Below are positions 23,053 to 27,472 of a DNA stretch of 64,000 bases, in pieces (positions within the stretch are counted from its first letter, which is position 1; every line of letters begins with the position of its first letter). The DNA is from Bacteroidaceae bacterium (lineage in GTDB: Bacteria > Bacteroidota > Bacteroidia > Bacteroidales > Bacteroidaceae), in assembly GCA_017522785.1 (NCBI GenBank), contig JAFWYF010000004.1, positions 55,480 to 119,479 of the forward strand, in the 5' to 3' direction. Both the position numbers and the translations under genes were made by a program. Under the pieces are notes generated by a model that was not told where the DNA came from, ran no database searches, and saw nothing but the letters and a program-made list of their open reading frames with translations.

Positions 23053-23688
23053 TTAAGGAATGATTGTCTCTTTATTACCATCTTTTTTGTGCCATGTACC
23101 GGTTACAAGATGTCCATCTTCAAATATTCCGATAACCTTTTCACCCGGTTGTGCTGTACGCTTTTTAATATCGCGTTGTTCAATGATATGTGTCTCTTTG
23201 AATGTGAGTACGCCATTGTCGTCGTTCATCTTGCCATTTTTCATGCGACCTTTGTACACTGCATAACCCAAATCTTTGGTAACAACCAAATTTGGGTCGG
23301 GTGCAGGAGCCGGTGTAGGCTCTGGTTCCGGGGCAGGTGCTGGTGCAGGAGCTGGGATAGGCTCGGGGGCAGGAACAGGCTCAGGGGCAGGTGCTGGTGC
23401 AGGTTGAACTTTCTTTGGCTCTTTTGCCTTTTTATCCGATTCTGGCATAAAGAACATTGCCGCACCGCCGGCTGCAATTGCAAGAACAGCAATAATTGCT
23501 ATTATTAATCCTTTATTACCACCTTTCTTGGGAGGAGGACACTCACGCAATGCCTTTCCACACTCGGCACAAACAAATTCCTTGCGTGATGGAATCTCTT
23601 GTACCTCTTTTGCTTTTGCCTTTGAACAACCATCGTTCAAACACATTCCATATCTAAAACGAACTCTGTCGTTACTACTACTTGCCAT
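23053..23688 (-). CDS. bitopic membrane protein: zinc ribbon, TM helix, (Pro-X)19 spacer, small C-terminal globular domain (operon gene 3)
   Basis: 211 aa. Cysteines C16-x4-C21 ... C40-x2-C43; TM at about 61-81 (LIIAIIAVLAIAAGGAAMFFM). Residues 96-132 alternate Pro strictly at every second position. The C-terminal YKGRMKNGKMNDDNGVLTF ... GIFEDGHLVTGTW is MORN-like. Confidence 0.8.
   Translation of the reverse strand: MASSSNDRVRFRYGMCLNDGCSKAKAKEVQEIPSRKEFVCAECGKALRECPPPKKGGNKGLIIAIIAVLAIAAGGAAMFFMPESDKKAKEPKKVQPAPAPAPEPVPAPEPIPAPAPAPAPEPEPTPAPAPDPNLVVTKDLGYAVYKGRMKNGKMNDDNGVLTFKETHIIEQRDIKKRTAQPGEKVIGIFEDGHLVTGTWHKKDGNKETIIP
23293..23403 (-). repeat. imperfect tandem GC-rich repeat encoding the (Pro-X)19 spacer
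   Basis: Reiterated ggtgcagg/ggtgctgg/ggctcggg units are visible on the plus strand. They translate as PAPAPAPEPVPAPEPIPAPAPAPAPEPEPTPAPAPDP. Confidence 0.8.
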
Positions 23689-23724
23689 TTTTTATTATTT
23701 TTAAATTGTTATCTATTTATGTTA

Positions 23725-26700
23725 TTACATCATTGGAGGGGGAGGAGGTGTAGGACCACCTGCAGGAGGCAACGGTGGGAAACCGGGTGCTGCAGCAGGA
23801 GGTGCAAACAATGGTTGCAATGCAGGAACCTGTCCGGCAGGCATCCATGCGGGCATACCGTCCATCCAAACTGTGCTTTGTGCTGTCAATTGACCACCCT
23901 GTACCATTTGTTTACACTGCTCATAGGTATAAGGACCATAGTTCTGACCTGCTACAGAGAGGTAGAGACTAATCTTTGGCTCTTCAGCATGAGGTGGAGG
24001 GGGAGGAGGTGTGCTTAAGCCACCGGGAGGTGGAGGAGGCACAGCCATTCCCATTGTAGGTTGCTGAACTTGCGCAGCGGGTTGCATAGTAGCTTGTGCG
24101 GCCTTTGCAGCAACCTCTTCGGCATTTTCTACAGCAAACAATGATGGTAATTGACTACCGTCGCCCTCACTATGTAACAAAATAGAATTGCTTAAGTCTG
24201 TAGCGGGATTTCCTGTGCATAGGAACTTTTCGTAACGTTCTTTATAAGGAGTCATCCACTCGATACCACGTACAGGGAAGCAGTATGATACTGTGATAAT
24301 TGAAAGCTCGTCTTTACGTGGGCTCTTGCGATTTACAGTGATTGTGGTACGTGCTGTACTCTGATTGAACGAATTTTTAAATGCTGCCTCAAGTTTATCT
24401 GCAAATTTCTTCAGGCCCTCATTTTCATCGGGAGAAGGAATAGAAACGAGTATAGCCTTTTTGTTAATACTTGCAGGGTTTGTAGGACTTAGATTTCCTT
24501 CGTTATTACGCAAGTGCAACTGTATCTGGTCGTTGTTCAAACGAAGATATACACCACTTTGACCTACTATCTTAGAAGCAAAGGCTTTGATATCATCATC
24601 GGTCTTAAGCTTTTGTTGTAACTGTGTTAGGATATTCAGGCCCAATACCTTATTGTCGCTATCGGCCTTTTCATTGTGTTTGGTCTTTACAATTTCTGAC
24701 AACTTAACATCAAATGCATCTTTTATATCATCGATGCTGATATTGTTTGCCAAATTACCAAAGTTCAAGAAATCGCCAACAGGTAGTATAGATTCACGCA
24801 ATTGACGTGCAATATTAGGCATATCTACTTTGTCAATCTTAAGTTCTTTCTCAAACTCATCCATTGCCTCCTCTTCGCTAACCTCAATGATTGCACCCTT
24901 CATATCCTCGAGACCTTTGTTCACCTTCTTCTGTGCTGTTACCAAACGCTCGGTTTCATCGATAGCATCATTGATTTTTTGACCAAATGAAGAGATATCG
25001 GCATCCATTTTACCTATTTCAACAAATACTTTTGCTAGAAGTTTCTTTGCAAAATCCCAACCACAAAGCATTGTCTTCGATGTATAGTAATCGGTTAAAA
25101 TACCCTGATGATCGGCATAGCGACGTGCACCAACACCAACCATGCGTTGCAATATACCCAAACGGCTCCACTCCTCGACATTTACTTTGCGGTCCTCTTC
25201 GCAAGCCTCGTAATTGGTTTTTTCCTCTTTTTCTTTTACTTCGAGCTCTTCGCGCATCTCGCCCAAACGCTCAAGCAGAAGTTTTGAAACTTTCTGCAAC
25301 TCAACAATAGAAACATCACCCAATTTCCATTTCTCGAACAGTTCGACCTCAATTGTGTGGCGTATCTCACGTGCTATTTCGGGAATTACACGTTCTTTAC
25401 CTTGGAAGAATGCTTCTACACCCTCTTCTCTGAAATGCTTGTTATAGAACTCGCTCATTATAGTATCGAGTTCATTGAGCGGACAATCGGCCTTCTTTGC
25501 ATCTTCGGCATAGCCAATTGCTTTATCGTGCCAATAATCGTTAAAGCCGGGATAATCAGCATCTGATTCAAGCACTTTAGCCTCCATTGTCAAATGTAGG
25601 TCGTCGAGCATCCATTTTGCGAGATTTTCTTTGTTGAAATACTCTTTGCGATAGTCTTTGTTGCGTTCTTCATCAACATAGCCAAGATTCTCTCGCCAAT
25701 TATTATATTTAAATTGATAGAGTATACTCTCGCCCACTGTATATGTGATATGTTTGAGTACACGAAGCTCAGGATACATCACACGTTTAATTCCGAAAGA
25801 ATTGATTTTCTTGGTACGGGCAACAGGGATACGTCCGTCTGCACCGGCATTTGCAGCCTCATCATACTCCAATGCAAAATCATCCATATTCTCGAAATTG
25901 TATGCACGTATGATATCGCTATTAACCTGATCCTCTTCGTTTATAAAGAATATACGGGCAAATACATAGTCGCTGACAATTTTAGGAAGTTCTGTGAGAG
26001 AATTTATTGTTAAACCATTCTCATTCACATTACTATAAACAGTGAGACCATCTGCAACACCCTTTACGCGGTCGCTATAATATTTAGCTTGTCCACCACC
26101 TGTTACATCGCAAGGGAACCATCGACCAGCCTGCAAAGCATTCAACTCGTTCATTGCAGCGTAACCATTCTGGTAGTAACGACCTTGGTCCATATCGGCT
26201 TTGGGAAGATTCATTTCGGGAATCATTGCATAAACCGAAATTTTTGCATTTGGGAATGTTTTACGTGTTTGTACAACAACGTCGACAATTGAACCCGAAC
26301 CTGTACCACCACAAAGACCGGCAAAGATATGTATATTGGTACTTGTAGCATCGGCAGAAATAGCCTCACAACGTGCATAGGCATCACGAAGGCTATTTAC
26401 ATAACCTACAGCATTTGCAGCAAACAAAAGACGACCAGCACGACGTTTTTGTCCTGCGGCTTGACCCAACGAGCCAATAGCCGACCTTACTGCCGATACA
26501 TTATCTACTATTCCCTTTACAGAAGGATAGTTGTTTATGTGGTCGAGAATATGCTCAACATCAACAGCTTTGATATTTAAAAATTCGTTATTGGTAAACG
26601 AAGCATCCTGTCCCATTACACGAAAGTCGGGACGTGCTCTACCATCTTTTGGCATCATTTCGTCGGTTGAATCGACATACAAAAGAGCAACTGGCAATTG

Positions 26701-26823
26701 CTTGCGCTCGTCAGCTGTTGGGAACTCCTCGAACATACGCATCTTGAATGCACGCAAGATTTTACCACCTGTACCTCCTAGACCAACGAGGATGTGGTTG
26801 CTTTTACAAAAATTAGTCTCCAT
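23725..26823 (-). CDS. tubulin/FtsZ-superfamily GTPase-like protein with long helical region and C-terminal GYF-like domain (operon gene 2)
   Basis: 1032 aa. VGLGGTGGK (T1-like, nt 26761-26784); GSLGQAAGQKRRAGR (FtsZ T3-like GAGxxPxxG, nt 26431-26475); GGTGSG (tubulin signature, nt 26293-26310, checked against the nucleotides). The middle region is rich in charged heptads. The C-terminus has a W/GP/W GYF_2-like pattern between polyproline runs. Confidence 0.85.
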   Translation of the reverse strand: METNFCKSNHILVGLGGTGGKILRAFKMRMFEEFPTADERKQLPVALLYVDSTDEMMPKDGRARPDFRVMGQDASFTNNEFLNIKAVDVEHILDHINNYPSVKGIVDNVSAVRSAIGSLGQAAGQKRRAGRLLFAANAVGYVNSLRDAYARCEAISADATSTNIHIFAGLCGGTGSGSIVDVVVQTRKTFPNAKISVYAMIPEMNLPKADMDQGRYYQNGYAAMNELNALQAGRWFPCDVTGGGQAKYYSDRVKGVADGLTVYSNVNENGLTINSLTELPKIVSDYVFARIFFINEEDQVNSDIIRAYNFENMDDFALEYDEAANAGADGRIPVARTKKINSFGIKRVMYPELRVLKHITYTVGESILYQFKYNNWRENLGYVDEERNKDYRKEYFNKENLAKWMLDDLHLTMEAKVLESDADYPGFNDYWHDKAIGYAEDAKKADCPLNELDTIMSEFYNKHFREEGVEAFFQGKERVIPEIAREIRHTIEVELFEKWKLGDVSIVELQKVSKLLLERLGEMREELEVKEKEEKTNYEACEEDRKVNVEEWSRLGILQRMVGVGARRYADHQGILTDYYTSKTMLCGWDFAKKLLAKVFVEIGKMDADISSFGQKINDAIDETERLVTAQKKVNKGLEDMKGAIIEVSEEEAMDEFEKELKIDKVDMPNIARQLRESILPVGDFLNFGNLANNISIDDIKDAFDVKLSEIVKTKHNEKADSDNKVLGLNILTQLQQKLKTDDDIKAFASKIVGQSGVYLRLNNDQIQLHLRNNEGNLSPTNPASINKKAILVSIPSPDENEGLKKFADKLEAAFKNSFNQSTARTTITVNRKSPRKDELSIITVSYCFPVRGIEWMTPYKERYEKFLCTGNPATDLSNSILLHSEGDGSQLPSLFAVENAEEVAAKAAQATMQPAAQVQQPTMGMAVPPPPPGGLSTPPPPPPHAEEPKISLYLSVAGQNYGPYTYEQCKQMVQGGQLTAQSTVWMDGMPAWMPAGQVPALQPLFAPPAAAPGFPPLPPAGGPTPPPPPMM
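23734..23751 (-). repeat. 18-nt direct repeat copy A (encodes TPPPPP at the extreme C-terminus)
   Basis: tggagggggaggaggtgt is identical to the copy at 23995-24012. The copies are 261 nt (87 codons) apart and in the same frame. Confidence 0.9.
23995..24012 (-). repeat. 18-nt direct repeat copy B (encodes TPPPPP just before the GYF-like domain)
   Basis: tggagggggaggaggtgt is identical to the copy at 23734-23751. Confidence 0.9.
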
Positions 26824-26845: not shown

Positions 26846-27472
26846 TTATCTTGTTCTTCTATGTGAATGGCCACTTACACGAGGACGCGAACGGTCGCCA
26901 CCCACAGGTTGGCGTCGGCCGGCACCTTCGCGGGTTCTACCACCAGAGCCATTGTTTATTGATATTGTTTTAATTGCTATGATTGCCGAAACCACTACAA
27001 AGCCTAAGCACCAGAGCAAACGACGAAATATGAAATGGCGCATAAAACTGCGTATTTCGTCTCCTATTGCCGCTGGGAGTGTTTCGACAGTGTATCCCAT
27101 AAAATAGCCTGAACCAAAATAGTTTTCGAATATTGGAAATTCATCTATGAGCAACTGAATTACCTCTTCGCTTTCGGCAATTGAAACAGAGGAATCCAAT
27201 GACACATAGCGCATATCAAGAATTTCCTGAGTTTTTTCCTCTACAATATCGGTAAAACTGATTATTTTTATTGCTCCACAAATCATTATACACTGTACGG
27301 AAAGCAAAACGAAGAGTACAAAGCCCATGATGTAGGTTATGATTGTAAACTCTGCATTCTTCCACCATCCTTTAATGGCAAAGAAAAACAGACACATACA
27401 TACAGCGGCAATAAGTATTCCCCAAAAGAGGCTGCTTATTGAAAATTGAAGTATTTCCCAAAGTGCATTCAT
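26846..27472 (-). CDS. 3-TM membrane protein with Arg/Gly-rich C-terminal tail (operon gene 1)
   Basis: 208 aa with hydrophobic segments at about 14-33, 42-68 and 150-170. The tail is GSGGRTREGAGRRQPVGGDRSRPRVSGHSHRRTR. Confidence 0.75.
   Translation of the reverse strand: MNALWEILQFSISSLFWGILIAAVCMCLFFFAIKGWWKNAEFTIITYIMGFVLFVLLSVQCIMICGAIKIISFTDIVEEKTQEILDMRYVSLDSSVSIAESEEVIQLLIDEFPIFENYFGSGYFMGYTVETLPAAIGDEIRSFMRHFIFRRLLWCLGFVVVSAIIAIKTISINNGSGGRTREGAGRRQPVGGDRSRPRVSGHSHRRTR

Follow-up and report, generated by a model that had tools for sequence, protein, structure and literature searches.

A tubulin-like protein with a C-terminal GYF_2 domain

The stretch analysed here, a 64-kb window of contig JAFWYF010000004.1 from a Bacteroidaceae bacterium, encodes on its minus strand a 1032-residue tubulin-like protein of the FtsZl1/Tubulin_2 family that ends in a GYF_2 domain set between two proline tracts. 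An earlier sequence-only reading had singled out this tail, together with two identical 18-nucleotide (nt) direct repeats within it, and had proposed that the domain might bind its own flanks and be lost by deletion between the repeats. The features of the gene, located by open reading frame (ORF) translation, Pfam, AlphaFold2 (AF2) models, Foldseek and exact matching, are as follows.

23725-26823, minus strand: FtsZl1/Tubulin_2 gene with a C-terminal GYF_2 tail, 1032 amino acids (ORF; Pfam)
23983-24210, minus strand: disordered, weakly conserved tether from the body of the protein to the GYF domain, about residues 872-947 (AF2 and column conservation)
23992-24042, minus strand: upstream proline tract VPPPPPGGLSTPPPPPP, residues 928-944 (translation)
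23818-23964, minus strand: GYF_2 core, residues 954-1002 (Pfam, AF2, Foldseek)
23728-23805, minus strand: C-terminal proline tail APPAAAPGFPPLPPAGGPTPPPPPMM, residues 1007-1032 (translation)
23734-23751, no strand assigned: copy 1 of the 18-nt direct repeat, encoding T1025-P1030 (exact match)
23995-24012, no strand assigned: copy 2 of the 18-nt direct repeat, encoding T938-P943 (exact match)

Pfam places Tubulin_2 (PF13809) at residues 11-367 (E=2.6e-45; 155.6 bits, cut-off 27). The tubulin G-box, GGTGSG at residues 172-177, is invariant, so that the protein has both the hidden Markov model (HMM) match and the box of the FtsZl1/Tubulin_2 family. Tubulin_2 corresponds to the family that Makarova and Koonin described as FtsZl1 in 2010 (PMC2875224). 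Both Tubulin_2 and GYF_2 are found in 120 of the 120 closest homologs (75-100% identity, from Bacteroidales metagenome-assembled genomes). A scan of one genome per GTDB species returned 394 relatives, with carriers in Prevotella, Paraprevotella, Segatella, Xylanibacter brevis, Hoylesella loescheii, Caecibacteroides, Bacteroides, Phocaeicola, Muribaculaceae, Paludibacteraceae and others. Xylanibacter brevis ATCC 19188, Caecibacteroides pullorum and Hoylesella loescheii are carriers that can be cultivated. The gene, typically one of Bacteroidales, was also met in bins labelled Clostridium, Lachnospiraceae, Oscillibacter, Treponema, Acidaminococcaceae, Sphaerochaetaceae, Oribacterium and Lactococcus garvieae (loci L048, L066, L074, L080, L087, L090, L093 and L098), which are most likely mis-binned contigs. 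PADLOC matched the tubulin-like protein to no defence system, and membership in such a system was dropped as a candidate.

The C-terminal domain of this protein is a genuine bacterial GYF_2 domain. Over its last ~105 residues the translation reads, in order, VPPPPPGGLSTPPPPPP, HAEEPK, ISLYLSVAGQNYGPYTYEQCKQMVQGGQLTAQSTVWMDGMPAWMPAGQVPALQPLF and APPAAAPGFPPLPPAGGPTPPPPPMM, exactly the tail that had been quoted before, and Pfam recognises GYF_2 (PF14237, formerly DUF4339) in it (E=5.2e-14; 52.2 bits, cut-off 25.8) over profile positions 2-50 of 50. A genome-wide scan found it to be the sole GYF_2 domain of the 2.1-Mb genome (57.7 bits). Among 36 aligned tails, including those of SPFH proteins, G35, P36, V57, G61 and W65 are invariant and W58 is kept in at least 90%, and the domain carries the bacterial GYF signature of G-P and the VW..G..W tryptophans. 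The G-Y-F triad is absent: the domain reads ..YGPYTYEQCKQMVQGGQLT.., with GGQL in the triad's place, and therefore departs from the canonical eukaryotic signature W-x-Y...GPF...M-x-x-W-x3-G-Y-F that includes it.

Structure prediction agreed with the profile match. In the AF2 model of the tail the core has a predicted local distance difference test (pLDDT) score of 83-90 and a strand-strand-helix-strand topology (elements E-E-H-E-H), while the proline flanks on both sides score 53-65. In the full-length model the GYF domain is a confident bead (pLDDT 82-86) with disorder before and after it, and pLDDT falls below 50 over residues 872-907 and 910-947. When the AF2 model was used as a Foldseek query against the PDB, the top match was the GYF domain of GltJ (NMR structure 7z3c, E=1.8e-4), followed by GYF-like chains of Tic56 and then by the GYF domains of GIGYF2, Smy2, At5g08430 and CD2BP2. 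By sequence alone, a profile of the tail matched the GltJ GYF chain 7z3c with E=4.2e-13. The suspicion that the domain is GYF-like was thus confirmed by HMM, fold and structural match.

Conserved proline motifs on both sides of the domain

The polyproline that had been noticed on both sides of the domain is present in the translation and is kept in orthologs. The 120 closest homologs share the pattern AVPPPMPGAAPVPPP..[GYF]..LFAPxxPxMPPLPPTGGPTPPPMM. In an alignment of 53 sequences the [AV]PPP, [VT]PPP, LFAP, MPPLPP and GGPTPPP positions are 80-90% conserved, and the linker just before the upstream proline motifs is 20-40% conserved. Flanks were counted in 76 distinct full-length proteins from the scan of one genome per GTDB species. 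PPP lies within 35 residues upstream of the domain in 67 of these and PPP or PPxPP downstream in 71; 63 carry proline motifs upstream as well as downstream, and in 68 the final PP(P) is followed by no more than three residues.

The flanks accompany the domain into other proteins. Unrelated Band_7_1/SPFH proteins of other Bacteroidales end in the same cassette, …APPPMPG-[GYF]-LFAPAAPGMPPTPPVV. Since the flanks are conserved and also accompany the domain on unrelated SPFH proteins, PPP-GYF_2-PPP is a conserved, portable cassette, here mounted on a disordered tether.

The bracket of prolines also occurs in a wider set of GYF_2 proteins. A query of the GYF core only, which carries no proline bias, retrieved 2875 proteins at E<=1e-3 from 1.84 billion representatives. 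In the best 149 of these 2875 proteins, a diverse set, a PPP stands within 20 residues of 88 of the 422 GYF_2 domains, on one side or both; the background is 2.1% of the other 20-residue windows in the same 149 proteins. Proline brackets of GYF_2 domains are therefore enriched, not universal. Many of the top matches (P0137-P0285) have 2-8 tandem GYF_2 domains joined by short and often proline-rich linkers, such as PVIPPPPPPQ.

Among six-frame ORFs of 100 amino acids or more, the longest three polyproline runs of this genome are the ones beside its single GYF_2 domain. PPPP runs elsewhere, considered as other possible ligands, are few: they belong to the tail of a lipoprotein, to a TonB-like protein and to a loop of one histidine kinase. 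In P0128, a member of the 90% cluster of the 1032-residue protein, LPP units are expanded in both flanks (PVPPLPPLP and GLPPLPPLPPMGG), and small-scale changes of repeat length therefore occur inside the proline tracts.

A zinc-ribbon membrane protein encoded next to the tubulin-like gene

Two further features lie in the gene that follows on the minus strand.

23053-23688, minus strand: gene for a 211-amino-acid protein with a zinc ribbon, a single transmembrane (TM) helix, a (Pro-X)n spacer and a small C-terminal domain (ORF; NCBIfam)
23530-23541, minus strand: juxtamembrane cytoplasmic C50-P51-P52-P53, a candidate trans ligand of the GYF domain (conserved RECPPPKKGG)

NCBIfam matches the 211-residue protein weakly with TonB and with the TM/proline region of GltJ, and in 75 loci its gene is the next one after that for FtsZl1-GYF. 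Residues 44-60 read LRECPPPKKGGN. The segment ...LRECPPPKKGG... is kept between the last cysteine of the zinc ribbon and the TM helix, and the periplasmic linker is variable. The (Pro-X)n spacer (window positions 23251-23541) differs in length among conspecific strains, with gaps of 9 and 18 nt, and in other genera the periplasmic spacer is of unrelated sequence while the cytoplasmic RECPPPKKGG is still kept.

Operons were scored for a PP motif within the 25 residues that precede the TM helix, with loci L075 and L079 reclassified by hand. The motif is found in 68 of 77 operons whose tubulin-like protein bears the GYF tail, compared with 1 of 13 paralog operons of identical gene order that lack it and so serve as a natural control. 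This pattern, in which CPPP tracks the presence of the tail, suggests a new lead on a candidate partner of the domain. The [C]PPP[K] of the zinc-ribbon protein also resembles the [VT]PPP[M] of the tail, a similarity that would fit a GltJ-type zinc ribbon/GYF module divided between two proteins. A GltJ-like zinc ribbon and GYF domain in one polypeptide were not found here; the parts are split between two adjacent genes.

Paralogous operons in the same genus have a different tail. At L104 (4821-8560) and L105 (5399-9070) the gene order is unchanged: a TM protein, FtsZl1, the zinc-ribbon TM protein and then exported proteins including an NTF2-like one. Their FtsZl1 ends in a helical domain and has no GYF tail, and their zinc-ribbon protein is without the PPP motif.

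Around the FtsZl1-GYF gene lies a conserved nine-gene operon of TM and exported proteins, in which Pfam detected no vWA or OmpA domain; both are frequent partners in FtsZl1 operons, as are kinases and GTPases. In a locus of another genus (L019, 7001-8230) a Ser/Thr protein kinase gene is located two genes upstream of the FtsZl1-GYF gene, in agreement with the kinase association reported for FtsZl1 operons. In the gut metatranscriptome X25, short contigs are 97-99% identical to three operon genes (23115-23293, 26588-26774 and 27097-27309) and leave the GYF tail uncovered; they point only weakly to transcription of the operon in vivo.

Possible ligands of the GYF_2 domain

Balaji and Aravind discovered bacterial GYF domains in 2007, and their paper already proposes the flanking proline-rich stretches of several bacterial GYF proteins as ligands of the domain, reports adjacent genes for TM proteins, and names SPFH+GYF and GYF+TM+TonB-C architectures (PMC2034487). 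That the flanking tracts may serve as cis ligands of GYF_2, which is plausible, is therefore not a new idea. A more recent precedent is the GYF domain of GltJ, whose affinity for the proline-rich sequence of AglZ is micromolar (PMC11135422, Attia et al. 2024). It binds with its beta-sheet face and not with the canonical pocket, and the PPG-type peptide of CD2 is left unbound; nearly all bacterial GYF domains were found to be without the G-Y-F triad, and ~44% of bacterial GYF proteins to combine the domain with a zinc ribbon (PMC11135422). The sequence-only reading had argued from eukaryotic domains that bind PPG-type ligands. The eukaryotic reasoning is not directly transferable: the triad is missing here, and the GltJ domain, the one bacterial GYF domain studied, binds a proline-rich sequence but ignores the CD2 PPG peptide.

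We favour a reading in which the tail is an adaptor that docks onto polyproline and the 18-nt repeats are a by-product, and we put its probability at roughly 55%. The last ~105 residues would form an adaptor cassette, with GYF_2 carried on a ~75-residue disordered tether of an FtsZl1-type GTPase and bracketed by [AV]PPPxPG..[VT]PPP upstream and LFAP..MPPLPP..GGPTPPPMM-COOH downstream. Homology with the GltJ domain makes docking onto PPP-type motifs the most likely activity of the domain. One candidate ligand would be its own flanks: contact in cis would make for autoinhibition, and contact in trans would cross-link subunits. The other would be the cytoplasmic CPPP of the zinc-ribbon/TM/spacer protein encoded by the next gene downstream, and such a contact could tie the cytoplasmic GTPase to a trans-envelope complex made from the remaining operon genes. 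The analysis establishes the identity and fold of the domain, the conservation and portability of its flanks and the co-occurrence with CPPP; each of the binding steps we infer.

A fuller version can be drawn tentatively, as a possibility that we would not call probable. A split zinc ribbon/GYF module of the GltJ type may couple the tubulin-like GTPase to the envelope in gut Bacteroidales through contact of the GYF_2 tail with CPPP, with the protein's own PPP flanks competing with that contact, as autoinhibition, or cross-linking subunits, and the whole acting as a multivalent tether. The CPPP motif that co-occurs on the neighbouring zinc-ribbon membrane protein is the most useful new lead from this analysis.

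Several points weigh against docking onto these ligands. AF2 monomer models leave both flanks undocked, with pLDDT 35-65, and the 6-7-fold enrichment of PPP beside GYF_2 domains is no specific proof, because disordered linkers near domains are commonly proline-rich. The failure of the GltJ domain to bind a PPG-type peptide (PMC11135422) counts on the same side. With regard to the neighbouring protein, the PP motif is missing in 9 of the 77 GYF-bearing operons, and the co-occurrence of GYF and CPPP amounts to few independent evolutionary events because the comparison sets one orthologous clade against a few paralog clades. In addition, CPPP abuts the last cysteine of the zinc ribbon and may be kept for structural reasons.

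Alternative roles for the proline tracts and the repeats

The proline tracts could instead be stiff polyproline-II spacers or low-complexity linker, with GYF_2 binding some other, for example non-proline, partner, in the way that the GYF domain of CD2BP2 binds U5-15K. This would suit the disordered, undocked flanks of the AF2 models and the variation of tract length and composition among orthologs, of which the LPP expansion in P0128 is an instance, as well as the finding that only 21% of GYF_2 domains in the best 149 of 2875 proteins have an adjacent PPP; a proline-independent GYF interaction is also mentioned in the 2007 paper (PMC2034487). We nevertheless consider a spacer role unlikely. 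The [AV]PPP, [VT]PPP, MPPLPP and GGPTPPPMM motifs are conserved at 80-90% where linker is conserved at 20-40%, and the downstream tract, a conserved motif at the extreme C-terminus, has nothing after it to space. The same flanks go with GYF_2 into SPFH proteins, and polyproline, which is costly to translate, is rare in this proteome. Translation itself offers another explanation, since runs of five or six prolines are strong ribosome stall motifs. Placed close to the stop codon, they could cause EF-P-dependent pausing that adjusts how the GYF domain folds or how strongly the zinc-ribbon gene downstream is expressed. Here the last run ends two codons before the stop, the next gene starts 36 nt further on, and such runs are otherwise almost missing from the genome. 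Most orthologs, however, have only PPP or PPxPP, which stall weakly, at motif positions that are kept, and SPFH proteins whose downstream genes are different have these motifs around GYF_2 as well, which makes a mainly translational role very improbable.

The repeats raise a separate question. The 18-mer TGGAGGGGGAGGAGGTGT occurs exactly twice in the window, with starts 261 nt (87 codons) apart; no further copy with up to two mismatches was found in the 64 kb, and none appeared in 100 shuffles. On the minus strand both copies read ACA CCT CCT CCC CCT CCA and encode TPPPPP, so the pair is just as it had been described. From the codon usage of this genome the chance of identical codons for the same TPPPPP peptide is ~5.5e-4, and the third PPPPP run of the gene uses other codons; the identity of the two copies thus exceeds codon bias. 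The same pair is present in a conspecific contig (L017, flanking genes 98-100% identical) and absent from the nearest other lineages, L002, L019, L021 and L022. L021 and L022 have GTT CCA CCT CCC CCA CCA upstream and ACA CCT CCT CCA CCA CCA downstream, and L002 and L019 have only PPP at these sites. The pair is therefore specific to one species. Its identity most likely arose by a short intragenic copy or conversion event between tracts that already encoded [VT]PPPPP.

It had also been proposed that the 18-mers work as a contingency device, in which slippage or recombination between them removes the GYF domain in frame and makes the population heterogeneous. The product would have 945 residues, and the junction would read TTACATCAT-18mer-GCTTAAGCC. 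The geometry allows it, as the repeats are exact, direct and 87 codons apart so that a deletion would stay in frame, and their identity is improbable from codon usage alone (the ~5.5e-4 above). Without RecA, repeats of 18 bp that are separated by a few hundred bp rarely give rise to deletions. The pair is confined to one species, with different codons or residues in sister lineages, and GYF_2 is kept by all 120 closest homologs. A 945-residue form is not among the 28 members of two 90% clusters, all 28 of which are 1028-1038 amino acids long. No 261-bp joint was found in contigs of 12 metagenome runs over 23400-24400, although assemblies cannot exclude rare variants. A single 179-nt joint in run X11 was rejected as a deletion and treated as a homolog misplaced on low-complexity sequence, because one of its sides is only 21 nt long, it lies away from the repeats and its length is not a multiple of 3. 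In JGI metagenome contigs the predicted junction had 0 matches and the intact context of copy 2 also had 0, an uninformative result, as the absence of the intact form indicates that these contigs lack this species. Neither deletion variants among these proteins and contigs nor the repeat pair in sister lineages, the marks of a repeat-mediated phase-variable locus, were thus seen; a deletion switch is scarcely credible, and the proposed route to population heterogeneity is not supported. We take the repeats to be a species-specific by-product and no programmed deletion switch.

Two alleles of the gene body

Two deeply divergent alleles of the tubulin-like gene body exist in one species. Over 24050-26800 the window is 67-80% identical in DNA (79% in amino acids) to L017 10001-13117, and the flanking genes are 98-100% identical. 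The divergent segment has abrupt edges, one at the start codon and the other in the upstream proline tract (about 23992-24134), where identity to L017 returns to 98.7%, and the tail and the downstream genes are common to both alleles. Each allele of the gene body is present on several contigs. The body in the window is nearest to a G017-type protein (94% of amino acids), and the other allele is nearest to the P0075 group (87%). That this body had been imported recently from a G017-like species was considered and rejected: the DNA identity between the window and L002 is 80-85% in the body and 67-79% in the flanks, a level of divergence that is ordinary between species.

Unitigs of 4-7x coverage in metagenome runs X3-X6 share exact 30-41-mers with the locus (23980-24009, 24192-24221 and 23929-23969) and then enter sequence absent from this genome and from all compared loci; those that branch off at 23980-24009 and 24192-24221 are minor ones of 5x.

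Comparison with known systems

The function of FtsZl1/Tubulin_2 has been open since 2010, and the operon described here is widespread in animal guts, with 394 matches in species-representative genomes and carriers that include Prevotella, Paraprevotella, Bacteroides, Muribaculaceae and Paludibacteraceae. A GltJ-type GYF tail, together with a proline motif on a neighbouring protein that tracks this tail, provides a handle on how such a GTPase might be wired to the envelope. Like the FtsZl1 family as described (PMC2875224), the protein has a Tubulin_2 head with GGTGSG and a long helical region and is encoded in an operon of membrane and exported proteins, in which no vWA or OmpA gene was found. 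The GYF tail is absent from that description and also from paralogs in the same genus.

The closest known relative of the tail is in GltJ of Myxococcus xanthus (7z3c, PMC11135422), which belongs to the same Pfam family, gives the best structural match and also lacks the triad. The two systems further share a zinc ribbon and a TonB-like single-pass membrane protein as companions of the domain. GltJ, however, joins its zinc ribbon, linker, GYF domain, TM helix and periplasmic part in a single chain and has its ligand on another protein, AglZ, whereas here the GYF domain ends a tubulin-like GTPase, the zinc ribbon, TM helix and spacer are encoded by the adjacent gene, and the domain has proline motifs at its own sides. 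The locus shows no evident MglA/AglZ context. Bacterial GYF domains with proline flanks were the subject of the same observation and the same inference in 2007, where the hypothesis was a proposal only; Tubulin_2/FtsZl1+GYF_2 is not among the architectures in the available part of that text (PMC2034487).

Eukaryotic GYF domains, such as those of CD2BP2, Smy2 and GIGYF1/2, have the same fold (Foldseek matches 7rup, 3fma, 1wh2 and 1gyf) and recognise proline-rich ligands. Their signature triad is replaced here by GGQL, and binding by the bacterial domain of GltJ proceeds via the beta-sheet face.

A more distant parallel is FtsZ, whose conserved C-terminal peptide binds FtsA and ZipA. Both proteins consist of a GTPase, a disordered linker and a short conserved terminal element that, by analogy, may serve as a tether to membrane proteins. 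The terminal element here is a folded GYF domain with proline motifs, not an amphipathic peptide, and there is no sequence relationship between the two. If the split zinc ribbon/GYF tether proposed above is real, it would be analogous to the contact of the FtsZ C-terminal peptide with ZipA or FtsA.

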